Source of the DNA: a virus
Strand: one strand, 5' to 3'
Length of the DNA stretch: 64,000 bases
IMG/VR virus record: IMGVR_UViG_3300042560_001826
Coordinates: 1 to 64,000 of that record
Under the pieces are notes generated by a model that made no database searches, was not told where the DNA came from, and saw only the letters and a list, made by a program, of their open reading frames with translations. This document shows, piece after piece, positions 2,651 through 60,976 of the stretch; the stretch's first letter is position 1, and every line of letters begins with the position of its first letter. The translations under genes were made by a program, and so were the position numbers.

Positions 2651-3682
2651 ATGGCAACACAAGAAGAGATTCTTGCAAAGGCTGACGAAGTTACTACGAG
2701 CGTCGTTGGCAATGCAAGCGGTGGTCTGCTCAAGCCTGAGCAGTCAAATCGTTTTATTGATTTCGTGGTAGATCAGTCCAACCTGATGCGTAACTCGCGT
2801 GTCGTTCGCATGCGCACACCGCAGATGGAGATTGACAAGCTGTCCATTGGTACTCGCTTGCTTGCAAAAGCAACTGAGGCAACAGACACTGGCTCAAATG
2901 CCCCTGTTACTTTCACGAAGGTTTCGCTTTCTAGCGTTAAGCTTCGTCTTGACTGGGAGTTGAGCACTGAGTCGCTTGAGGATAACATTGAAGGTGCTTC
3001 GCTGGAAGATCACATCGCACAGGTGATGGCTCGCCAGACAGCAAATGACATGGATGACCTCTTGATCAATGGTAATACATCTTCTAACAACGGTCTGCTG
3101 AAGGCTCTTGACGGTTTCGTTAAGTTGGCTCTTGGCGGCGGTGTGACAGTTGATGAAGGCGGAAATAACGTGTCTCGTGCAACATACGATCGCGTTCTCC
3201 GTAACATGCCAACTAAGTACCTGCAGAAGCGTAATGAATTGCGTTTCTTCACTGGTCCTGGTTTGGTTCAGGATACATCATTCAGCCTGCAGAACCCCAA
3301 CTCGGCAACTGCAGCAACTGCTGGTGCACCTGCTCCTGGTTCGACATTTGGCGAACAGGCATTCATGAACGGTGCTATCCGTGCAAACGGTGGCCCTGGT
3401 GCAACTGGTCTTGCTCCTTATGGTATTCCGCTGGTGGAAATCCCGCTGATGCCAGAGACAGTGACTGGTGACTACTCGGGTGCTGCTGGTAGCCATGGCT
3501 ATGTTGAATTGACATTCCCCAACAACAGAATTGTTGGTATCCACAGAGATATTACTGTGTATCGTCAGTTCCAGCCAAAGACAGACACGATTGAGTACAC
3601 ACAATTTGTCCGACTTGCAAGCAACATTGAGAACGGTGCTTCTTATGTCATTGCAAAGAACGTCAAGTTGCGTTCGCTCTAA
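2651..3682 (+). CDS. Major capsid protein (HK97 fold)
   Basis: 343 aa, GGLLKPEQ motif, strong AAGGAGG SD, GC-richer high-expression codon usage, position after protease. Confidence 0.92.
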   Translation: MATQEEILAKADEVTTSVVGNASGGLLKPEQSNRFIDFVVDQSNLMRNSRVVRMRTPQMEIDKLSIGTRLLAKATEATDTGSNAPVTFTKVSLSSVKLRLDWELSTESLEDNIEGASLEDHIAQVMARQTANDMDDLLINGNTSSNNGLLKALDGFVKLALGGGVTVDEGGNNVSRATYDRVLRNMPTKYLQKRNELRFFTGPGLVQDTSFSLQNPNSATAATAGAPAPGSTFGEQAFMNGAIRANGGPGATGLAPYGIPLVEIPLMPETVTGDYSGAAGSHGYVELTFPNNRIVGIHRDITVYRQFQPKTDTIEYTQFVRLASNIENGASYVIAKNVKLRSL

Positions 3683-3707: not shown

Positions 3708-3733
3708 GGCGGGGTGGATTATTCCGCCCCGCC
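3708..3733 (+). terminator. GC-rich hairpin after MCP (terminator or 3' stabiliser)
   Basis: GGCGGGGTGGA-ttat-TCCGCCCCGCC; no U tract. Confidence 0.6.
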
Positions 3734-3749
3734 AAAACAATATAAAGGG

Positions 3750-4037
3750 ATGATTATGAGTGATAATGTAATTAAAAGTGAAGATATAGCTCCAAAGAAA
3801 ACAAAGCAGGCTAAACCTAAAAAGGTAGCTCCTGCTGAAGTGCCATCTGGTGATAAGTCAATTGTCTTTTTTGAAAGCGGATATTCTTATTCATTATCAA
3901 ACGGTTTTACTTTTACGCAAGAAAATAGAATGCTTGAACTATCGGCGGAAGAGGCAAATAGATTGTTGGCTTTAGATAATTTTAGATTGCCTACTGACGA
4001 AGAAAAGCAAATGTATTATAATAGTTTGGAGGCATAA
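3750..4037 (+). CDS. Small post-MCP head-associated protein (start 3750 or 3756)
   Basis: Lys/Pro-rich N-terminus plus ~53-aa domain ending FRLPTDEEKQMYY; the ORF-track GTG start lies inside the hairpin. Confidence 0.75.
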   Translation: MIMSDNVIKSEDIAPKKTKQAKPKKVAPAEVPSGDKSIVFFESGYSYSLSNGFTFTQENRMLELSAEEANRLLALDNFRLPTDEEKQMYYNSLEA

Positions 4038-4040
4038 TTA

Positions 4041-4424
4041 ATGGCTGGCAATCTTTCTAATTACCTTGAGAATAAGCTGATTGATCACTTCTTGGGGACA
4101 ACAACATTTACAAAGCCTTCGGCTGTCTATGTTGCTCTATTTACAGTAGCACCAAATGATGCTGGCGGTGGTACAGAAGTTACCGGCGGCTCCTATGCTC
4201 GCCAAACTGCCGCATTTACTGCCGCAGCAAGCGGTGCAACCTCTAACAGTGGAAATATTGATTTTGTAAATATGCCAGCTGCAACGACAGTTGCAATAGG
4301 CATTTATGACGCTTTGACAAGTGGTAATTTACTTCTTTGGGGAACACTTACAGCGAATAAAACAACAGATGCTGGAGACACACTAAGAATCGCAACTGGC
4401 GATCTTGATATCAGCATTGATTAA
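4041..4424 (+). CDS. Virion structural protein, fibre/filament subunit-like (MAGNLSNYLENKL...)
   Basis: YVALFT..P...GGTEV.GGSYAR motif common in phage fibre/head-associated proteins. Confidence 0.65.
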   Translation: MAGNLSNYLENKLIDHFLGTTTFTKPSAVYVALFTVAPNDAGGGTEVTGGSYARQTAAFTAAASGATSNSGNIDFVNMPAATTVAIGIYDALTSGNLLLWGTLTANKTTDAGDTLRIATGDLDISID

Positions 4425-43877: not shown

Positions 43878-44166
43878 TCAAATATGGCAAAGATCTGCTG
43901 TTTGTCTCAGAGATAAAAATTCTTCGTATTGGTTATCATACAACATTGAGCATATAAAATATGCAAAAGAGGGTTGCAAGTCGTGTAGTGTAAAAACGGC
44001 ATGTCTTGCGAACGCTCTTAGTCAAGAGTTTTTTATTGGAGTAAACGCTGGCATCTCGGAATGGGATTATTTAAATAAAACATGGAAAGAGGTGAAAAGT
44101 GTCAGAAAAACCAACTGGTCAAGAAGTGATGCAACACTTCGTAAGCTGTTGCAAGAAGCGAAGTAA
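43861..44166 (+). CDS. whiB: WhiB-family Fe-S transcription regulator
   Basis: WQ..A.C...AK..C..C.V...CL..AL...GVNAG; probable start ATG 43861. Confidence 0.72.
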   Translation: MKNSHNQIWQRSAVCLRDKNSSYWLSYNIEHIKYAKEGCKSCSVKTACLANALSQEFFIGVNAGISEWDYLNKTWKEVKSVRKTNWSRSDATLRKLLQEAK

Positions 44167-50900: not shown

Positions 50901-51401
50901 CTCTCAACAAGAGATCATATCTATGCATTAATTGGGGATAGAACATTGCATCACTTCTGCGATGCATACAATTATATTGATACACCACTGTATGAATTTA
51001 TTAAACTTAAAATGCAAGGTATTAATCATAAATATGCATGGCTGTATAATCATGGTCTCGGAGATGTAGACAACGATAAAACTTTGCTCTATATCTTTAA
51101 TCTCAGACTGTTCAAAACAGCACGAGGTTTTGACATGGGCAATATTTATTGCTGGGACGGTAAGAGAATGTTCAAGATTGTAGTGTTTGCATCAGTGCTC
51201 AAGAAGGTAAAGGGGATTCTTAAGCAGAACGAATGGTATGCTGCAAAGATTGATAAAATTGATGAGAAAAACCCACTTGTGCAGATAGATTCGTATAAAC
51301 TATCATCAGGTGATGCATTGATCACGGTAAAAGATTTTATTAAAAGAAAAAACTTGCAGGAGCTACAAAATGAAGTTAACTATATACATTCCGACATATA
51401 G
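47979..51401 (+). CDS. dnaE: DNA polymerase III alpha subunit
   Basis: HLHCHSEYSLLDG PHP domain, GRGS, PDIDLDF, HAAG, FNKSHA motifs. Confidence 0.96.
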   Translation: MSNFVHLHCHSEYSLLDGMSTPEEIAKITSINGQYAAAITDHGSMAGVLRFQEACVSNNVKPLFGVEAYFVPSISRDDDGKHERHHLILLAKTNTGLEKLFKMSKIGWTDNFYYKPRIDFALLEDLVDDDIIALSGCMASSICRAIEADNFSRAEELSERFIKIFKDDFYYEVQAWNSKKINDGIMQLASTYNKKLVATADCHFPSAHDKGCEEVLLCVSQYPGFSPAVLRHAEQEAAKFDKAETDIVKKINKMYPDRQLRFDEINPYVAKAEEIAGWFKDAGYDRSDILDNTLEVAEKCTASVQKRRNLLPKYMKSLNSDDYLKEMAEFRLKELGLGDEYKTRLYEELGIIKQLGFADYFLIVWDLVKWADNNGIGRGTGRGSVGGSVLAYLLEITKVDPVKYNLLFARFINAERNDYPDIDLDFEDKRRTEVRSYLVERWGKDNVAAITTYGTYKPKSAVKDVARVLQVPYKETNNITPYFETIEELQTTQKGKLFCSKYPDVPKFAKRLEGRIRNAGVHAAGMVVSSIPLTQVCPIETRKDTDGEGRAVVTAFDMTDAEAVGLIKIDILGLRTVSVIKDALAMIRKRYGTDVEALSLGLDDPEVYRNFNDGNTVGVFQTDAAAYRNLIERMGIDNFNDLVVSNALVRPGALLSQGERYINCKRGVDPAYYPDESVRAILEETYGTVIFQEQLMQMCVKLSGFSWSDADKLRKIIGKKRDAAEFEQYKDKFINNSILPKSEAKQMWSEFELSALYMFNKSHAVAYSMLSYQTMWLKVNYPSEYLWALLFNEDVGEKITAYLMEAQRLNIPILPPDVNLSDEFFSIDYTGEKPAIRFGLSNVLSCGRAAIAEILAKRPFNCYEEFDAKCSKSAVKKPLRENFDKVGAFASLGYVSQFDHKRYYLPILGFSIEDTEKNEIDNVVDKLVDFHETNSPLMLVKAIVRSTKKTPQYLRVELEDLSGSATIFAERNTELSTRDHIYALIGDRTLHHFCDAYNYIDTPLYEFIKLKMQGINHKYAWLYNHGLGDVDNDKTLLYIFNLRLFKTARGFDMGNIYCWDGKRMFKIVVFASVLKKVKGILKQNEWYAAKIDKIDEKNPLVQIDSYKLSSGDALITVKDFIKRKNLQELQNEVNYIHSDI

Positions 51402-52092
51402 AAGAGAATCACTTGATGCTTGCTTAAACAGCATTACATCACAATATAATGACCATGTTGAGATTATTGTTTCTGACAATGATCAAGACGGATTTGCAAA
51501 AAATATAGTTTATAAATATAAAAAATATATATCTGAATATTCAATTAGAAAGCAAAATATTGGCTGCGATGGGAATTGTTTATATGGAATCACAGCCGGT
51601 GATGGAGAATATGTATGGGTTATTGGAGATGATGATGTTATCCTACCTGGGGCTTTGGATACTATTTTATCAATGCTTGATGGAACAGATCGTATAATGC
51701 AATTTGCACCATATTCTGGTGAAGTAATACCTGCATTTTCTGGCGCAATGTCTGAGTTAATAACTAAACTTAATGACAAATCATTTTTAATTGCTGCAAC
51801 ATTAGCAAGTATGAATGTGTGGAGAAGGGATGTTATGGACTTTAGAACAGGAGTAAAACACTTGGATTCTAGGAATGTGTTAGCTTGGGCTGGTCTTAAT
51901 TGCAAGACAGTTAGTATTCCAATTTCCCCAACAGTTTTAGTCAATGACACTAATTTGTTTGAATTTAAGGATTTTGATGGGGTTATGTTTGAATATTCAG
52001 ATGCATTAGCTGATGCTAACGGTGTTGAGAGATTTACTTTTTACAACGCTAATAAATGGAATTTTGTTAGCGCCTCGTTGGAGGCAAAATGA
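51370..52092 (+). CDS. Glycosyltransferase family 2 (GT-A)
   Basis: IYIPTY.R, IIVSDN, N.G...N, GDDD motifs. Confidence 0.85.
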   Translation: MKLTIYIPTYRRESLDACLNSITSQYNDHVEIIVSDNDQDGFAKNIVYKYKKYISEYSIRKQNIGCDGNCLYGITAGDGEYVWVIGDDDVILPGALDTILSMLDGTDRIMQFAPYSGEVIPAFSGAMSELITKLNDKSFLIAATLASMNVWRRDVMDFRTGVKHLDSRNVLAWAGLNCKTVSIPISPTVLVNDTNLFEFKDFDGVMFEYSDALADANGVERFTFYNANKWNFVSASLEAK

Positions 52093-52136
52093 TTGTCTCT
52101 ACAGGTGGCACATTTGATCTATTTCATTCCGGTCAT

Positions 52137-52166
52137 TTCACTGGAGATAAGTTCACTGGAGATAAG
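52137..52166 (+). repeat. Perfect 15-bp tandem duplication TTCACTGGAGATAAG x2
   Basis: 52137-52151 and 52152-52166. Confidence 0.9.
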
Positions 52167-52601
52167 ATGGTTGTGTATACAGGTGGTACATTTGATTTAT
52201 TTCATTTTGGTCATTCAAGATTGTTGGAGAGATGCAAAAAAGCAGTTGGCGATAATGGCTATTTAGTCGTTTCGGTTAATACAGATGAATTCTGCTCTCA
52301 ATACAAAGAACCTCCAATTTGCAGTCTAGCTGAAAGAATGGAAGTTGTTTCTTCTTGTAAATGGGTGGATAAAGTAATTGTAAATTCGGGCGGTGCTGAT
52401 TCTCGACCTGCTATTATAGAGGCGAAAGCTAATCTTATAATTGTTGGTTCCGACTGGCAAACTAAAGATTATTACAAACAAATGGGATTCACTCAAGAAT
52501 GGCTTGACGAGCATAATATTGGTGTGATGTTTATCCCGTATACAGATGCTATCTCAACAACAATTATTAAATCAAGAATACTAAACAGATCATTACAATA
52601 A
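52167..52601 (+). CDS. Cytidylyltransferase (TagD/RfaE-like); a duplicated 5' remnant extends the ORF to 52089
   Basis: GTFDLFHFGH (HxGH), ER...V, GSDW and ISTT motifs; GGAG SD before ATG 52167. Confidence 0.85.
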   Translation: MVVYTGGTFDLFHFGHSRLLERCKKAVGDNGYLVVSVNTDEFCSQYKEPPICSLAERMEVVSSCKWVDKVIVNSGGADSRPAIIEAKANLIIVGSDWQTKDYYKQMGFTQEWLDEHNIGVMFIPYTDAISTTIIKSRILNRSLQ

Positions 52602-53531: not shown

Positions 53532-53865
53532 AATGGATTTTTCTAATTATCAATTTAGGGCGTGTAAAACTGCAAAGTATCCTCAGAACCCCACCACTGG
53601 GGTTATTTATACTGCTCTTGGATTGGCTTCAGAAGCTGGAGAAGTTGCTGGCAAAATCAAGAAGATGATCCGTGATGATAATATGGAATTAACATTTGAT
53701 AGAAAGCAGCAGGTGGTAGATGAGATTGGTGATGTCTTATGGTATTGCGCCATGCTCGCTACCGAACTAAACATTTCATTTAATGAAGTTGCAATCAGAA
53801 ATCTTCAGAAACTTGAAGATCGCAATAATAGAAATGCAATTCATGGAGATGGCGATAATCGTTAA
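53521..53865 (+). CDS. MazG-like NTP pyrophosphohydrolase
   Basis: LGLASEAGEVAGK.KK...EIGDVLWY...G.GDNR. Confidence 0.88.
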   Translation: MENEMDFSNYQFRACKTAKYPQNPTTGVIYTALGLASEAGEVAGKIKKMIRDDNMELTFDRKQQVVDEIGDVLWYCAMLATELNISFNEVAIRNLQKLEDRNNRNAIHGDGDNR

Positions 53866-55112
53866 TGCTGTTTTCAATTCATACTGATCAGCACATTATT
53901 GATGCCAACGGTATATTTGGGTATTCATATGGATACCATAAAACGATTGAAAACTTTAATAAGTTTAAGTATCGCAACGAAAAAATGAATGTCGTTAAAA
54001 ACGACAAGGCTTCTCCAATTCAAATGTTCTACATGGAGCCTGAGTGGTATAACTTGAAAACGATGACAAGTTTTCGTTCCCCTGAATTCCAAAAGTTCCA
54101 TGATCACCAGTATAAAATCTATGGAACATACCTTGAGACAACCCGCGTTTGGTCTCATTGGATTGAGGCGATGAAGCAAGTTGATGAAATTTGGGTCGGT
54201 AATAAATTTTCTGTAGATGCAATTAAGAATTCCGGCATTGAAACACCTGTGTATATTTTTGAATTGGGTTTAGATAAGATTTGGCAACCATACAAAAGAA
54301 AAGATACAGGCGTTGTCAGATTTCTTCATGTTGATTCAGGCAGTCCAAGAAAACGAGCTGACCTTGTAGAAAAAGCTTTTACTACTATTTTTGGAGACAG
54401 AAATGATGTTCAATTAACATTAAAATATCATTCTCATGAAGGCGATTCTGGTTACAGTGTGATGAATCTATTTTCTGGAAAATCTAACGTTGTAAAACTG
54501 TATAAAACATTAAGCACTGAGGAGATGGTAAAACTTTATCAAGATCACGATGTTCTTTTGTACCCAAGTGAGGGCGAAGGATTTGGTCTAATACCACTTC
54601 AGGCAATGGCTACAGGTATGCCTGTAATATCAACAGGAGTTTGGTGTGATTATGAAAGATTTTTTAACTCAAATATTATTGATTCAACCATGGGTAAAAC
54701 TCAACATACCGGGTATTTTGAAGGCGAAGTTGTGCTCCCAGACTTTGATTCGCTTGTTTCGCTTATTAAAAAAGTATACGACGATATTGATGCGCAAAAA
54801 AAGTTTTTTTATGATCAAGCTCCTCTTGTCATTGAAGAGTATGATTGGAAAAATAAAACAGATAAGGTTCTTAATGCTCTCATAAAAAGAGTCGGCATAA
54901 AAAAATTTAATCCCATCAAGGAGTATGTTGTTGTAAAAGACTTCATCTACTTTAAAGGCAACAACCGCTACATAGCCCCAGATGGATCTATGTTTGATTC
55001 AGAAAATAGAATTAGAGAAGTTGATAAGAAAGTCGCTGACAGCTTGGTATATAATAAGTCTTTTAGAAAAGCAACAGACGATGAGATAAGGGCGTTTAAT
55101 GAAAAGAACTGA
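53865..55112 (+). CDS. GT-B glycosyltransferase (GT4-like) with C-terminal domain homologous to post-MCP protein
   Basis: RK..D, YPSEGEGFGLIPLQAMATG.P motif; extra ~55-aa C-terminal domain. Confidence 0.85.
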   Translation: MLFSIHTDQHIIDANGIFGYSYGYHKTIENFNKFKYRNEKMNVVKNDKASPIQMFYMEPEWYNLKTMTSFRSPEFQKFHDHQYKIYGTYLETTRVWSHWIEAMKQVDEIWVGNKFSVDAIKNSGIETPVYIFELGLDKIWQPYKRKDTGVVRFLHVDSGSPRKRADLVEKAFTTIFGDRNDVQLTLKYHSHEGDSGYSVMNLFSGKSNVVKLYKTLSTEEMVKLYQDHDVLLYPSEGEGFGLIPLQAMATGMPVISTGVWCDYERFFNSNIIDSTMGKTQHTGYFEGEVVLPDFDSLVSLIKKVYDDIDAQKKFFYDQAPLVIEEYDWKNKTDKVLNALIKRVGIKKFNPIKEYVVVKDFIYFKGNNRYIAPDGSMFDSENRIREVDKKVADSLVYNKSFRKATDDEIRAFNEKN

Positions 55113-55398
55113 GAAGGAAGAGATTAAAAAAGACAAGGCTAAGGGTGTTAAAAATTCTGGGCGTGGCGTGAAGAAGGGAGATGCAACTCTTAATAAATTT
55201 CTTGTTGATTACAAGCACAATGGCAAGTCATTTACTCTTACGCATGAAAACTGGCTTGAGCACCGGAAAAATTCTTGGAAATCAAATTACCGTTATCCTT
55301 GTATTTCTGTCGTATTTGGGGAAGATTCCGAAACAAAGGTTGCTATAGTGGAGTGGGAAGTGTTCAAAGAACTCATAGAAGGCTCAGAATATGAATAA
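55099..55398 (+). CDS. PD-(D/E)xK Holliday-junction-resolvase-like nuclease
   Basis: NSGRG..KGD......VDYK. Confidence 0.65.
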   Translation: MKRTEKEEIKKDKAKGVKNSGRGVKKGDATLNKFLVDYKHNGKSFTLTHENWLEHRKNSWKSNYRYPCISVVFGEDSETKVAIVEWEVFKELIEGSEYE

Positions 55399-56761
55399 AA
55401 AAACTTTTGGATCGCTATTTGCAGGTGTTGGCGGGTTTGACATTGGCATGGAAAATGCTGGCTGGGATTGTAGCTGGCAAGTTGAATGGGATAAACATTG
55501 TCAGTCAGTACTGCAAAAGCATTGGCCTAATGTGCCAAAGTATTGGGATATTCAAGATGTAAATGGTGCAGAATTAACGCCAGTAGATTGCATCGTTTTT
55601 GGTTCTCCTTGCCAAGACCTATCGGTTGCTGGCAAGGGTGGAGGGCTTGAGGGATCACGCTCAGGCTTATTTTATGAAGCAATTAGAGTTATAAAGGAGA
55701 TGAGAAATGCAACTGGAAATCAATTTCCAAAATGGTCAATCTGGGAGAATGTCCCAGGAGCCCTCACAAGCAATAAAGGAAACGACTTCGCAAAGGTCCT
55801 TGACGAAATGGCAAACATCGGGGCATTGGTCCTTGAATGGCACATCTTGGATGCACAATGGTTCGGAGTCGCCCAGCGCAGAAGAAGAGTCTTCTTGCTT
55901 GCTTGTTACGATTCTGGAACCGCTTCAAGATGTTCCGAAAAAATATTACCTGTCCCCCAAGACAGCGAGGGGAATATTAAAAAGGGCAGAAAAGAAAGGA
56001 AACATTCTGCCAGAGCCTCTAAGACAAACGCTGATCAACCTATCCTCTATGGACAGTCAGGATTTGCAAAGTGGACAGAAGGCGGAGTAACGCTGGCAGC
56101 AACTGATTACAAACGACCAGAAAGAAATGTTGTTTGTGAGCCTATATCGTTTCATTTAAAGCAAGATCCAGTGCATTCATATAATGTTTCGCAATGTTTA
56201 TATGGGCAAAATGGTGTTGGCGTAGCAATTGAAAGACCTTTTATTCTTGATGGTACAAGAGTTGGTGATGCGAGAATATATGAAGATCAAATTGTTCCAA
56301 CGCTAAAGCACAGGATGGGAACAGGTGGCGGTCAAGTTCCACTTGTTGGCGTAGATGCAGATGTTCTTGCTTATGATGGCTATAATAACGCTGTTAGCGA
56401 GAATATTTATCGCACATTAAGAATTGGAATTGATTCTGCTGACCATATTGCAATCCCAATTCAAGGCACAATTATTGGTCGTTCAGACAAGGCCGGACCG
56501 CAAGGGAAAGGCTTTGGTGACGAAAATGATCCATCGTATACTCTTGATACAATTTCACAGCATGGAGTTATGACACCTGATCTTCTACTTAGAAGATTGA
56601 CTCCTCTTGAATGTGAAAGGCTTATGGGGTTCCCTGATGAACATACGAAATATTATCACGATGGGAAGATTGTTGCAGATACCAACAGGTACAAGATGTG
56701 CGGTAATGCTGTGGCAAGTCCAGTTGCCGAATGGATTGGGAGGAAAATCTATGAAATTTAG
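55391..56761 (+). CDS. DNA cytosine-5 methyltransferase with expanded variable region
   Basis: FAGVGG (I), GSPCQ (IV), ENV (VI), QRRRRVF (VIII), RRLTP.ECERLMGFP (IX), YKMCGNAV (X). Confidence 0.93.
   Translation: MNKKTFGSLFAGVGGFDIGMENAGWDCSWQVEWDKHCQSVLQKHWPNVPKYWDIQDVNGAELTPVDCIVFGSPCQDLSVAGKGGGLEGSRSGLFYEAIRVIKEMRNATGNQFPKWSIWENVPGALTSNKGNDFAKVLDEMANIGALVLEWHILDAQWFGVAQRRRRVFLLACYDSGTASRCSEKILPVPQDSEGNIKKGRKERKHSARASKTNADQPILYGQSGFAKWTEGGVTLAATDYKRPERNVVCEPISFHLKQDPVHSYNVSQCLYGQNGVGVAIERPFILDGTRVGDARIYEDQIVPTLKHRMGTGGGQVPLVGVDADVLAYDGYNNAVSENIYRTLRIGIDSADHIAIPIQGTIIGRSDKAGPQGKGFGDENDPSYTLDTISQHGVMTPDLLLRRLTPLECERLMGFPDEHTKYYHDGKIVADTNRYKMCGNAVASPVAEWIGRKIYEI
55707..56090 (+). CDS. Alternative-frame protein nested in the methyltransferase gene (putative beta subunit)
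   Basis: AAGGAG at 55694-55699, 7 nt before ATG; ILE...VP.KYYLS...GIL.RA resembles the post-motif-VIII segment of C5-MTases. Confidence 0.6.
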   Translation: MQLEINFQNGQSGRMSQEPSQAIKETTSQRSLTKWQTSGHWSLNGTSWMHNGSESPSAEEESSCLLVTILEPLQDVPKKYYLSPKTARGILKRAEKKGNILPEPLRQTLINLSSMDSQDLQSGQKAE

Positions 56762-59169: not shown

Positions 59170-59921
59170 GAAGAAGTGTAAGTGTAAAGGACATATCAAG
59201 CTTTGCAAAGCTTAATATGATTTACAATCAAGTAAGAGTTATTGAGGCAAAGCAGAATGCTACTCAGTACAAGTGTTTAGGTTCTGGCAACTGCTGCAGA
59301 ATAGGATTGAATATTCATATGGCGGAATGTGCAAGTATTGCATTCAATATCCGTCAGCAATATTATCTATATTTAGAAGATAAGGGTTTAGAGTATGCTG
59401 ACAATTGGGTTGATGGAATTGTAAAAGATCTAAAAGAAGCAATGTTTGACGAGGATTGGCAAATTGGTGGAGAGACAAAACGGCACTGCGCCTTCTACAA
59501 GGGTGGCTGTAGCATCTATGGTTACAGACCGATGGTGTGTAGAACATTTGGCACAGTGACATATGTTGATGATTATTGTCCAAGAATTAGAAATGCTACC
59601 GGCAACATTGACTACTTTAGTGGTGATGGTGTGAGAAAAGTAATCATGGCATTTCAAGATTTCTTAAAGGAATATACAAGTGATAAAGAAGAGGGCTACG
59701 ATATGGTTGTGTATATGCCTCTCGGTGTCCTCAGCTTCTTGCTTACAACTGATGAATTGATTGAGCTTGAAAAGGCAACCGATAAGAAGTTCTGGAAGGC
59801 TGTTCAGGGCTGGTTCAATTACAGAGTCGGATATACAAAGCTTCACGGCTATGATTACGACAAGTTGAATTCGGAAGCAAAAGCTGTTGGAGTTGAATTG
59901 AGATTTCCCAAAGAGCAATGA
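59166..59921 (+). CDS. YkgJ-like cysteine-cluster (Fe-S/Zn) protein
   Basis: C..SG.CC ... C.F....C.IY..RP..CR.FG. Confidence 0.75.
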   Translation: MRRSVSVKDISSFAKLNMIYNQVRVIEAKQNATQYKCLGSGNCCRIGLNIHMAECASIAFNIRQQYYLYLEDKGLEYADNWVDGIVKDLKEAMFDEDWQIGGETKRHCAFYKGGCSIYGYRPMVCRTFGTVTYVDDYCPRIRNATGNIDYFSGDGVRKVIMAFQDFLKEYTSDKEEGYDMVVYMPLGVLSFLLTTDELIELEKATDKKFWKAVQGWFNYRVGYTKLHGYDYDKLNSEAKAVGVELRFPKEQ

Positions 59922-60976
59922 TTTTTTGGAATGAAAATCCAGTTTCTTCTTACGCAGAAGGCTATAGCTACGCAGCAAAATCAATAGTTAATAGCTTAAC
60001 CAAGCACGGCGTTGATGTCCACAGATCAAAATCTTCTGGTAATGCAGATGTTAATGGTTTAGTCAATCTTGGTATTTCCTACATAGATAAAAGCGATTCT
60101 GGCGAGGCAATTAAAATAACTCATGCTCTGCCAGAACTATACTCAAGAGGCGCAAAGCATTCAATAGGGTTTTCCTACTGGGAGACTAATAAACTTCCGG
60201 GATCTTGGATTCCCGAAATGAATCAAATGGATGAAATATGGACAGCATCCGAATGGGCTAGAAATGTTTTTATTGAATCAGGAGTCAAGATACCTGTGCA
60301 CGGTTTCAAGCTTGGCATAGATGATTCATTGTATTTCCCGCCGGACAAACCAAGAAAAGTGCAGGGGAATAAATTTAAATTTCTTAGCATAGGCTCCCCA
60401 TCGACTCGTAAGAACTCTCAGATGGCTGTAGATGCATTTTTAAAGCTGTTTAGCAACAATGACGAGCATGTGCTCATATTTAAATCAATGGGGCCTCCAG
60501 ACGCGAGGATATCCAGAGGCACTGGTCATCAGAAATCTCTCTATGATACTAAGAATATTAATGTTATAGATTATGAATTAAGCCATCAAGATTTAGCAAA
60601 CTTGTACGATAGCGTTGATTGCGTTTTGTACCCAACAAGCGGAGAAGGGTGGGGGATTTTGCCAATGAAAGGAATTGCAAAAGGGATCCCAACAATCTGC
60701 ACTAATGCAACAGCTTGTACAGAGTATGCCGAGTTATCAATACCATTAGACTATCAATGGGGGACAGATAATATGGGTGGCATATATAGTGGTTGCGGGA
60801 CATGGGCAATACCAAATCTTGATGATTTATGTGATAAAATGTTATATGTCGTTAATCACTATGATAAGGCTTCCGAGAAGACTTTTTCAGGTGCTCAATG
60901 GGTAAATGAAAATCTTACTTGGGATAAAGTAACGAAACCAATGGCGGATAGATTATGTCAGATATTGAACCAGTAG
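59918..60976 (+). CDS. GT-B glycosyltransferase (GT4-like)
   Basis: WET, DE.W..S, RKN, YPTSGEGWG..P motifs; paralog of 53865. Confidence 0.85.
   Translation: MIFWNENPVSSYAEGYSYAAKSIVNSLTKHGVDVHRSKSSGNADVNGLVNLGISYIDKSDSGEAIKITHALPELYSRGAKHSIGFSYWETNKLPGSWIPEMNQMDEIWTASEWARNVFIESGVKIPVHGFKLGIDDSLYFPPDKPRKVQGNKFKFLSIGSPSTRKNSQMAVDAFLKLFSNNDEHVLIFKSMGPPDARISRGTGHQKSLYDTKNINVIDYELSHQDLANLYDSVDCVLYPTSGEGWGILPMKGIAKGIPTICTNATACTEYAELSIPLDYQWGTDNMGGIYSGCGTWAIPNLDDLCDKMLYVVNHYDKASEKTFSGAQWVNENLTWDKVTKPMADRLCQILNQ

Follow-up and report, generated by a model that had tools for sequence, protein, structure and literature searches.

What is a copy of a putative capsid-accessory domain doing at the end of a glycosyltransferase (GT)? 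This question is raised by a gene of an uncultured freshwater actinophage, found in a window of 64,000 nucleotides (positions 1 to 64,000 of IMG/VR record IMGVR_UViG_3300042560_001826), where the C-terminal extension of a GT resembles the C-terminal domain of the small protein encoded directly after the major capsid protein (MCP) gene. The phage is considered an actinophage because its genome carries two WhiB genes. The GT gene is located outside the head module, in a replication and recombination block that contains RecA-like, MazG, resolvase and C5-methyltransferase-like genes. The features discussed below are collected in the table.

Table. Features of the window relevant to the fused glycosyltransferase and the head module.
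Feature	Position	Strand	Basis
Major capsid protein, 343 aa, HK97-type	2651..3682	+	Pfam Phage_capsid; phrog_1623 E 1.3e-81
Predicted docking strand, MCP residues 161-172	3131..3166	+	Interface list: MCP 163-168 pairs with domain residues 9-15
G+C-rich hairpin between MCP and post-MCP genes	3708..3733	+	Direct sequence reading; GGCGGGG pairs with CCCCGCC
Post-MCP small protein, 93 aa	3756..4037	+	Conserved N-terminal peptide, Lys-rich linker, C-terminal domain
C-terminal domain of post-MCP protein, predicted MCP-binding module	3855..4019	+	AF2; complex prediction with MCP
GT2 glycosyltransferase, upstream of GT	51370..52092	+	Pfam Glycos_transf_2 E 3.6e-14
Cytidylyltransferase-like nucleotidyltransferase, upstream of GT	52089..52601	+	Pfam CTP_transf_like E 1.6e-23
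GT4 (GT-B fold) glycosyltransferase, 415 aa, with C-terminal extra domain	53865..55112	+	Pfam; phrog_2170; AF2
GT C-terminal domain, residues ~357-412	54933..55100	+	Copy of the post-MCP protein's domain (BLASTP, genome search, hhalign)
C5-cytosine DNA methyltransferase-like candidate, two genes downstream of GT	55391..56761	+	Reading of the translation
Second GT4 paralogue, lacking the domain; terminase genes lie just downstream	59918..60976	+	phrog_2170 E 1e-33

The catalytic part of the fused protein belongs to the GT4 family (Glycos_transf_1, retaining glycosyltransferases of the GT-B type): it passes the cut-off of PF00534 (46 bits vs 26.4, E 5.4e-12) and has the two-Rossmann GT-B fold, with additional matches to Pfam GT4-conflict and to phrog_2170 (E 7.7e-46). 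The AF2 model (pLDDT 85.5) has at least 500 GT-B matches in the PDB at E<=0.001, the best being 3oy2 (E 3.2e-13), which is also retrieved by sequence (E 4.7e-4). The best fold matches are chlorovirus NY-2A B736L, SdgB, TarM, GtfA, PimA and BshA. For the catalytic part, B736L and the GT4 protein O-glycosyltransferases SdgB and GtfA rank highest by structure (Foldseek E 3e-13 to 1e-9), and none of these three has the C-terminal domain; the list as a whole mixes in lipid, teichoic-acid and small-molecule enzymes, and the acceptor cannot be read from the fold. In the E-x7-E motif of the C-terminal Rossmann domain (EGFGLIPLQ) the first Glu is E238 and the second position is occupied by Gln246. Both residues are invariant in 22 GT orthologues, and the Streptomyces phage Faust GT gp19, which is 35% identical to the fused enzyme and has no such domain, likewise has Gln.

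The genome encodes three GT4 paralogues and one GT2 enzyme. The second GT4 paralogue, which is 30% identical to Faust gp18, had been said by the sequence-only reading to lack the domain, and a six-frame search of the genome agrees. The third (genome positions 100062-101075, outside the window) also lacks it and has Glu at the second E-x7-E position. The nucleotidyltransferase encoded at 52089 matches phrog_7878, heptose kinase/adenylyltransferase (E 1.3e-33). In Faust, the homologous GTs are encoded at the start of the late operon. The DNA of the fused GT and a GT-type domain found no match among cultured phages in tblastn searches.

The sequence-only reading had aligned the C-terminal extension of the GT with the post-MCP protein, and this alignment holds. 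BLASTP gives a single ungapped segment, GT residues 358-407 against residues 48-97 of the post-MCP open reading frame, with 16 identities over 50 positions (32 bits, pairwise E 2e-6). When all six frames of the complete 105,121-bp genome are searched with the last 62 residues of the GT, these match only themselves and positions 3855-4016 (E 6.4e-5). Just 16 identities in 50 residues might be obtained by chance between two short peptides of like composition, but this explanation has virtually no probability left and we count it as already refuted by the hhalign comparison of 19 GT C-termini with 16 post-MCP proteins, which gives a probability of 98.3% and E 1.4e-14 over 55 columns. In addition, one profile search retrieves domains of both types together, and intermediates exist: the window lineage has the most diverged GT-type domain (21-29% identical to small-type domains), while in other lineages the two types are closer, with up to 41% identity between genomes. 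In the GT model, the domain forms a block with pLDDT of 87-92 whose order of strands and helices is the same as that predicted for the free post-MCP domain. These results support the view that the two segments are homologous and represent a single type of domain that folds on its own.

The peptides quoted in the sequence-only reading are present in the sequence, but the start of the post-MCP protein had to be corrected, and so had the extent of the GT domain, now placed at residues ~357-412 (54933..55100). The protein starts at ATG 3756, which corresponds to the equivalent Met of 24 homologues of 93-94 aa and is preceded, 6 nt upstream, by an RBS-like AAAGGG. The GTG at 3714 was rejected as the start: it sits inside the intergenic hairpin, which is not followed by a T-run, and the 24 homologues begin at the Met of ATG 3756. 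The protein has a match to phrog_9487 (E 0.0022) and none to a Pfam family, and the protein of the window found no match among cultured phages by tblastn. According to AF2, its C-terminal domain (pLDDT 85) consists of four strands followed by two helices.

Among 1.84e9 representative proteins, a profile search finds the domain almost only at the C-terminus of phage proteins of 60-150 aa, and the only enzymes to which it is fused are those of the present GT family. The domain family comprises ~100 clusters at 50% identity. Six further candidate carriers, all long (P0050, P0082, P0083, P0101, P0110 and P0122), were rejected, being Big_9/cadherin, BspA-LRR or other repeat proteins to which only a part of the profile aligned. 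Gene context was read in IMG/VR loci of freshwater relatives and in two cultured Streptomyces phages. Wherever it is readable, the small-protein gene directly follows the MCP gene: this order is shared by the window, 9 related loci and the cultured phages StarPlatinum (gp53) and Faust (gp28). The donor family is therefore associated with the head module. The architecture is modular: a constant C-terminal domain is combined with interchangeable N-terminal parts, which may be Lys-rich (as in this phage), acidic, SAP-like (SAP/HeH-like in Streptomyces phages) or, in the case discussed here, a GT. Of the small-protein domains, 78% carry a net negative charge; this predominantly acidic character speaks against the domain itself being a DNA binder.

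The domain falls outside all Pfam families and has no sequence relative in the PDB; we found neither a proteome nor a structure of any carrier. The best structural match of the post-MCP domain is the N-domain of YqbF from the Bacillus subtilis skin/PBSX-type prophage (PF14553, PDB 2HJQ). Residues 1-51 of 2HJQ rank first in VIA-align but with Z of only 4.8 (rmsd 4.0, 51 aligned), Foldseek gives a probability of 0.63 (TM 0.60, rmsd 2.2 over 46 columns), and folds similar to the L9 N-terminal domain score nearly as high. There is no membership at the sequence level: PF14553 reaches E 0.17 in one of 24 domain sequences and matches nothing in the genome at E<=10. The ESM Atlas yields unnamed viral clusters and a sub-threshold DUF7302 lead only, and BFVD yields uncharacterised phage proteins only. 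YqbF joins its domain with a SAP/Rho_N-like motif, and some members of the family described here show this combination in the reverse order. The likeness to YqbF gives position and fold, not mechanism. In PBSX-type Bacillus phages, the YqbF gene directly follows the MCP gene (PMC11526630).

MCP is 48-50% identical to the MCPs of StarPlatinum and Faust. When the post-MCP copy of the domain was modelled together with two copies of MCP, the complex reached ipSAE of 0.65, against 0.02 for the best of three controls, with contacts agreeing between runs by at least 91% and partner pLDDT of at least 83; this ipSAE level is attained by 58 of 80 solved complexes and 2 of 110 mismatched pairs, rates that hold here only roughly, as the use of our own alignments and of two MCP copies departs from the calibration of the tool. 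It is unlikely that the predictor reproduced a known structure, because neither MCP nor the domain has a solved sequence relative in the PDB. The prediction, a step that the sequence-only reading had proposed, thus supports binding of the post-MCP domain to MCP.

Nowhere is MCP, otherwise 77-97% identical, more variable than at the predicted docking strand: the 7-residue window starting at residue 160 has the highest mean entropy, 1.31 vs 0.39 overall. This strand and the hairpin of the small protein that is predicted to contact it change together by lineage. In the GT of the window, the hairpin has diverged from that of the small protein (KGNNRYIAPDG against ESGYSYSLSNG), and at the predicted contact positions GT-type and small-type domains are 31% identical vs 36% for the rest. 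In lineage G002-G004, the hairpins of the two domain copies are nearly identical.

The fusion is kept in ~70 related GT orthologues or contigs (52-63% identity) and is ancestral to the GT orthologue group, with core residues (Y, G, F, V, L, F-R, E) preserved across the whole group. The domain was also lost twice, independently, from otherwise intact GTs, and it must be dispensable because both losses occurred without loss of the GT. Compared with 97%-identical relatives, the GT domain of the window lineage shows 4-5 synonymous differences and one non-synonymous difference, which corresponds, on these few changes, to pN/pS of ~0.05. GT-type domains are on longer branches than small-type domains. 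Four related genomes of 91-109 kb with both genes contain exactly two copies of the domain each. Concerted evolution of the two copies of a genome was rejected, as copies from the same genome show no excess identity.

From the homology of the two domains, the conservation of the fusion and the synteny of the donor, together with the modelled binding of the small protein to MCP, the following scenario suggests itself. The post-MCP domain would dock onto MCP strand 161-172 by edge-strand pairing and hold the variable, charged N-terminal part of the small protein on the capsid protein. The C-terminal domain of the GT (~56 residues) would be a captured copy of this MCP-binding domain and would act as a tether, concentrating the enzyme on MCP, either on monomers or on assembled (pro)capsids, where it may glycosylate the capsid protein or proteins mounted on the capsid. 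To this explanation as a whole, from captured domain to capsid-associated glycosylation, we assign a probability of about 0.45. Further points in its favour are the variability of the docking strand, the modular architecture of the family, the GT family as the only fused enzyme and the actinophage character of the genome. That a phage enzyme is guided to its substrate by a duplicate of the domain with which the phage's capsid accessory protein would bind MCP is likewise a tentative statement, with somewhat less than an even chance of being correct. The sequence-only reading had described the domain as a capsid address tag. The homologous domain, its donor in the head module and the predicted binding of the post-MCP protein to MCP speak for this description, which is thereby partly supported, while the diverged hairpin of the window GT, contact positions no more conserved than the remainder, the two losses of the domain, the placement of the GT gene in the replication and recombination block and the lack of acceptor tails speak against it. 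As to the latter, mycobacteriophage glycans are reportedly carried by Ser/Thr-rich C-terminal tails. No such tail is found on MCP (which ends in KNVKLRSL) or on the tail-tube candidate (which ends in GKIIDQV), nor is there a poly-Ser/Thr tail on any structural protein; MCP has a conserved internal loop rich in S/T/A/P at approximately residues 213-256.

The GT may have a different acceptor. It is possible, though unlikely, that it glycosylates DNA as a part of a base-hypermodification cluster and that its domain does not serve delivery to a protein; the domain might then bring the enzyme to heads during packaging or recognise some other shared partner. The GT is indeed encoded among genes of DNA metabolism and matches Pfam GT4-conflict, and the genome encodes a DUF1599 'nucleotide modification associated' protein and a 2OG-Fe(II) oxygenase. 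The gene located two genes downstream contains stretches (FGSLFAGVGG, GSPCQDLS, ENV and a C-terminal MCGNAV) that we take to be typical of C5 methyltransferases, and the gene order that includes it recurs in relatives. Together with the cytidylyltransferase-like (heptose-type) and GT2 genes upstream, this layout is like that of the methyltransferase, nucleotidyltransferase and GT-B clusters that add sugars to 5hmC, which combine a methyltransferase, a 5mYOX/TET enzyme and a GT (Pyle et al., bioRxiv 10.1101/2023.12.21.572611). The oxidase or hydroxymethylase that defines those clusters is, however, absent from the complete genome, where TET/JBP (PF12851), ThyA-type hydroxymethylase (PF00303) and ThyX (PF02511) have no match at E<=1, and thus there is no known route to a hydroxymethyl-pyrimidine acceptor. 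The divergent 2OG oxygenase belongs to phrog_274, does not score high enough for Pfam to assign it to a prolyl-hydroxylase-like family and is not TET-like in these searches. The best 50 fold matches of the GT are protein, teichoic-acid, lipid and small-molecule GT4s, with T4 beta-GT not among them, it is hard to see what use an MCP-binding module would be to an enzyme acting on DNA, and the late-operon position of the homologous GTs in Faust also fits poorly with DNA modification.

Other alternatives concern the domain rather than the acceptor. It would be captured once, by duplication of a gene of a neighbouring module, and persist as a decaying or repurposed remnant that does not bind MCP and has only a role in folding, stability or another local function of the GT. 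The two independent losses, the longer branches of GT-type domains and the changed contact positions of the strongly diverged window lineage are what one would expect of a remnant; the core residues kept over the whole orthologue group, the low pN/pS, albeit from few changes, and the confidently predicted fold of the domain in the GT are not, and we regard this explanation as quite unlikely. Finally, the domain may be a homotypic pairing module, the GT copy pairing with the copy of the small protein, or the small protein may itself receive the sugar. In that case the post-MCP protein would be an indirect route of the GT to the head, or would be modified by the GT prior to assembly. Self-pairing is common among small alpha/beta domains that have a free edge strand, and the modelled contact with MCP is made by a hairpin of this type; the maintenance of exactly two copies in the four genomes and the near-identity of the hairpins in lineage G002-G004 would also be consistent with pairing. 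Yet nothing suggests co-evolving partners because copies of the same genome show no excess identity, the model puts the domain of the small protein on MCP by a wide margin over controls, and in the Streptomyces phages the small protein and homologous GTs are both retained but not fused, which makes pairing improbable. The tether to MCP remains the reading that we prefer.

It is for actinophages that phage GTs are established to glycosylate virions, and mycobacteriophage glycans were located on the C-termini of capsid and tail-tube subunits (Freeman et al. 2023, Cell Host Microbe, as summarised in PMC12619734). The phage described here is similar to mycobacteriophages with O-glycosylated virions (Che8, Corndog, Myrna) in that it is an actinophage with soluble GTs of its own, and the capsid is proposed as the acceptor here. 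Unlike in mycobacteriophages, its MCP and tail-tube candidate are free of Ser/Thr-rich tails, its enzyme bears the domain of a putative capsid accessory protein, and virion glycosylation is putative. To our knowledge, virion glycosylation by phage enzymes was shown only in mycobacteriophages, no targeting domain was described for their GTs, and we know of no account of how the enzymes select capsid proteins. The domain has no sequence relation to such small binders of assembled capsid proteins of the HK97 type as lambda gpD, T4 Soc/Hoc and lambda gpFI. The gene of lambda gpFI directly follows the MCP gene, and the protein is addressed to the prohead by its C-terminal domain; the fold match between this domain and the post-MCP domain is weak (Z 3.2). 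Engineered fusions to decoration proteins (lambda gpD, T4 Soc/Hoc) tether foreign proteins to phage heads, and the GT fusion would be their natural counterpart; we know of no natural enzyme fusion to gpD, Soc/Hoc or gpFI domains.

If the GT modifies DNA instead, it would be no less surprising to find such an enzyme equipped with a domain for head binding. If the tether exists, the domain would constitute a small natural capsid-docking module of ~55 aa that may be of interest for display work. A role, that of an MCP anchor, would be given to a widespread unnamed post-MCP family of actinophages, which includes cultured Streptomyces phages open to experiment. The fused domain would also be the first described targeting module of a virion-modifying glycosyltransferase and would provide, for one lineage, a testable answer to the question of how such enzymes select capsid proteins.

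The C-terminal extension of the glycosyltransferase (GT) and the domain of the small protein encoded directly downstream of the major capsid protein (MCP) gene align without gaps, as the sequence-only reading had described, and both peptides that it quoted are present in the translated products. BLASTP pairs GT residues 358-407 with the small protein at 16 identities in 50 positions (pairwise E 2e-6), and when the last 62 residues of the GT are searched against all six frames of the genome, they match, besides the GT itself, only positions 3855-4016 (E 6.4e-5). In that search neither the GT paralogue at 59918, which had been said to lack the domain, nor a third paralogue at genome positions 100062-101075, beyond the window, carries a copy. 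The extension is kept in nearly all of the 73 GT loci gathered from IMG/VR (52-97% identity). The profile comparison proposed with the original observation, made here between 19 GT C-termini and 16 post-MCP proteins, gives an hhalign probability of 98.3% and E 1.4e-14 over 55 columns, and in other lineages the resemblance between GT-type and small-type copies is visible by eye, at up to 41% identity. These two results indicate that the similarity is homology and rule out chance, so that the original observation is confirmed and proves stronger than could be told from the window alone.

The source phage is an uncultured actinophage, because it carries two WhiB-family genes and because its MCP is 48-50% identical to those of StarPlatinum and Faust, cultured Streptomyces phages of the family Stanwilliamsviridae. 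More than 2,000 metagenomic relatives of the MCP were found, the best 120 at 82-97% identity. The window covers the opening 64 kb of an IMG/VR virus record of 105,121 bp, which is complete according to CheckV and is cut within the portal gene. Beyond the window, a minus-strand run at genome positions 93056-96191 (1060-4192 of L093, a stretch of the same genome) contains genes for a 2OG-Fe(II) oxygenase, an FkbM-type methyltransferase, a SprT-like protein, S-adenosylmethionine decarboxylase and a DUF1599 'nucleotide modification associated' protein, with a ferredoxin-like protein gene (92266-93036) just before it; the run could be part of a pathway that modifies sugars, polyamines or nucleotides.

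Features of the phage genome relevant to the glycosyltransferase and the post-MCP domain
Feature	Coordinates	Remarks
Major capsid protein (MCP)	window 2651..3682	
Post-MCP small protein, 93 aa	window 3756..4037	start ATG 3756, same start as 24 homologues
WhiB-family gene	window 43885-44061	Pfam score above cut-off
GT4 glycosyltransferase, 415 aa	window 53865..55112	PF00534 E 5.4e-12; phrog_2170 E 7.7e-46
WhiB-family gene	genome 71074-71262	Pfam score above cut-off
Third GT4 paralogue + class II ribonucleotide reductase (RNR)	genome 100062-103079 (L093:8063-11080)	beyond window

AlphaFold2, run with the combined alignment, predicts a compact free domain (pLDDT 85) in which two helices follow four short strands. 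In the model of the full GT (pLDDT 85.5), residues 358-414 repeat this order of elements and are joined to the GT-B body by a short linker, the domain blocks reaching pLDDT 87-92. No Pfam family matches any of the 83 family members scanned, the small protein of the window included, and the PDB holds no sequence match to the domain. In structure the domain comes closest to the N-terminal domain of Bacillus subtilis YqbF (2HJQ; VIA-align rank 1, Z 4.8; Foldseek TM 0.60, rmsd 2.2 over 46 columns). Kinship with YqbF is a lead and not proof, because folds like the N-domain of ribosomal protein L9 score nearly as well and PF14553, the YqbF family, has no sequence match to the domain. In PBSX-type phages the gene that immediately follows the MCP gene encodes YqbF (PMC11526630), and this position, shared with the domain gene, makes the fold match suggestive.

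Searched with a profile of the domain, 1.84 billion representative proteins gave 105 matches at E<=1e-3. GT fragments and one full GT (P0042) aside, almost all carriers are 35-150 aa long and have the domain as their C-terminal part, and the search for other enzymes fused to it, which had been suggested earlier, leaves this GT family as the only one. Six long proteins (Big_9/cadherin, BspA-LRR or other repeat proteins) were rejected as carriers, their profile match being partial. The unrelated repeat protein P0050 (792 aa) has about twelve 60-residue repeats, each with the motif G-[IV]-F-[RK]-[TK]-P-[TS]-x-[DE]-E-I, similar to the domain's final junction of strand and helix (N-F-R-x-P-T-x-x-E-I); the likeness is probably convergent.

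Four related genomes of 91-109 kb contain exactly two copies of the domain each, borne by the GT and by the post-MCP protein, and a fifth contains only the post-MCP copy, its GT gene being cut off by the contig end. The GTs of two related loci, L056 and L074, lack the domain and stop at about 354 aa, and no separate domain ORF follows them. Since both nest within domain-bearing clades of the catalytic-part tree (SH-aLRT 96 and 99), the fusion is ancestral to the GT orthologue group and was lost twice. In the domain tree the GT-type copies separate into two groups that exclude nearly all small-type copies, and a single capture by the GT is possible. One group is short-branched and closer to small-type sequences (33-41% identity); the window GT domain belongs to the other, faster-evolving one (21-29%). 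Concerted evolution of the two copies was rejected because copies from the same genome are no more alike than copies across genomes. Between the window GT domain and its 97%-identical relatives there are 4-5 synonymous differences and one non-synonymous difference, which is consistent with constraint, the events being few.

The domain gene directly follows the MCP gene in every case where the context could be read, namely in the window, in nine related loci, in StarPlatinum (portal, protease, MCP, gp53) and in Faust (MCP, gp28). Many small proteins begin with a common peptide of the type M-x-x-N-V-I-T-S-E-D-V; alignments A1 and A4 give it as M-[ST]-D-N-V-I-[TK]-S-E-D-V (window 3756-3790) and, in distant members, as x-[IV]-T-[ST]-x-[DQ]-[VI], and a disordered charged linker comes next. 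In Streptomyces-phage members a SAP/HeH-like motif takes the place of this peptide, with a weak match in StarPlatinum gp53. The N-terminal parts are net positive and Lys/Ala/Pro-rich in 61% of small proteins, net negative in 30%, and SAP/HeH-like in some, P0088 from the profile search matching SAP at E 3.3e-5. In 78% of the small proteins the domain carries a net negative charge, which argues against its binding DNA. The ORF finder's start, GTG 3714, is spurious and is explained by a G+C-rich hairpin after the MCP stop codon (3708-3733, GGCGGGG...CCCCGCC, with no T-run after it), within which it lies. The hairpin possibly serves as an attenuation or RNA-stability element and would then set the ratio of MCP to downstream products. 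The gene directly after the small-protein gene (4041-4424; PF23140 'Podophage GP4 fiber I protein gp80', E 3e-40) starts a fibre-like gene block of more than 12 kb between the capsid genes and later virion genes.

Binding of the post-MCP domain to the MCP is supported, though not shown, by a predicted complex of two MCP copies (20-row alignment) and the domain (24-row alignment), which scores ipSAE 0.65 (0.65, 0.67 and 0.60 in separate runs), the best of three controls reaching 0.02. Among solved complexes 58 of 80 attain this mark, as do 2 of 110 mismatched pairs, counts that are rough given our own alignments and the two MCP copies. Contacts agree by at least 91% between runs and the partner pLDDT is at least 83. 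The score is unlikely to reflect known structures remembered by the model, because no solved structure is related by sequence to either protein. The first hairpin and edge strand of the domain (residues 8-15) are predicted to pair with MCP residues 161-172, with further predicted contacts between MCP 181, 185, 274-276, 329-330 and 337 and domain 19, 32-33, 36 and 39-42. Independently of this prediction, the most variable stretch of the MCP is the 7-residue window from residue 160 (mean entropy 1.31 versus 0.39 overall; 0.71 for the predicted interface positions). Across ten genomes this strand and the hairpin of the small protein vary together by lineage, a pattern that fits a co-evolving contact and is confounded by shared descent. 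GT-type and small-type copies are 31% identical at predicted contact positions versus 36% elsewhere; the hairpin has diverged in the window GT and is almost the same as that of the small protein in the GT of the G002-G004 genome lineage.

What the GT modifies bears on the proposal that its domain is a capsid address tag. Its fold matches, among the best 50 listed, include chlorovirus B736L, SdgB, GtfA, TarM, PimA and BshA. SdgB and GtfA are protein O-GlcNAc transferases. In the GT4 E-x7-E motif the GT has E-x7-Q (residues 238-246, window 54576-54602); this Gln is invariant in 22 of 22 orthologues and also present in Faust gp19, the 59918 paralogue having Lys and the third paralogue Glu there. 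Glycans of mycobacteriophages reportedly sit on Ser/Thr-rich C-terminal tails, which the MCP and the tail-tube candidate, in contrast, do not have. A conserved loop inside the MCP (residues ~213-256, window 3287-3418) is rich in Ser/Thr/Ala/Pro/Gly, 8 residues longer than in Streptomyces phage MCPs and invariant at many positions in 20 relatives; it is possibly exposed and a candidate acceptor site.

Alternatively, the GT could glycosylate DNA as part of a base-modification cluster. It lies in a replication/recombination block (GT2, cytidylyltransferase-like enzyme, RecA-like, MazG, GT, resolvase and a putative C5-methyltransferase, assigned by reading its translation), the gene order of which resembles published clusters where a methyltransferase, a 5-methylpyrimidine dioxygenase and a GT-B enzyme attach sugars to cytosine, including heptose made with a cytidylyltransferase (bioRxiv 10.1101/2023.12.21.572611). 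However, no TET/JBP, ThyA-type hydroxymethylase or ThyX was found in the complete genome, the one 2OG oxygenase encoded there is not TET-like in family searches, and T4 beta-GT is not among the 50 best fold matches listed. Faust, moreover, encodes GTs of the same family (30-35% identical) without the domain; two copies open its late operon, followed by RNR, endolysin, the unannotated gp22 and the portal gene. The GT-RNR order upstream of the portal (gp18-20) is mirrored by the third paralogue of the window genome (337 aa, phrog_2170 E 2.8e-40), which adjoins the RNR gene just before the portal gene. We thus consider DNA glycosylation unlikely.

The address-tag proposal is, then, supported in part: the domain is a genuine module that the GT took over from a head-module protein, and the controlled complex prediction supports the copy in that protein as an MCP binder. 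From these we infer that the GT would be delivered to phage heads and would glycosylate the capsid, making the system one of phage-encoded glycosylation with a candidate built-in capsid tether.
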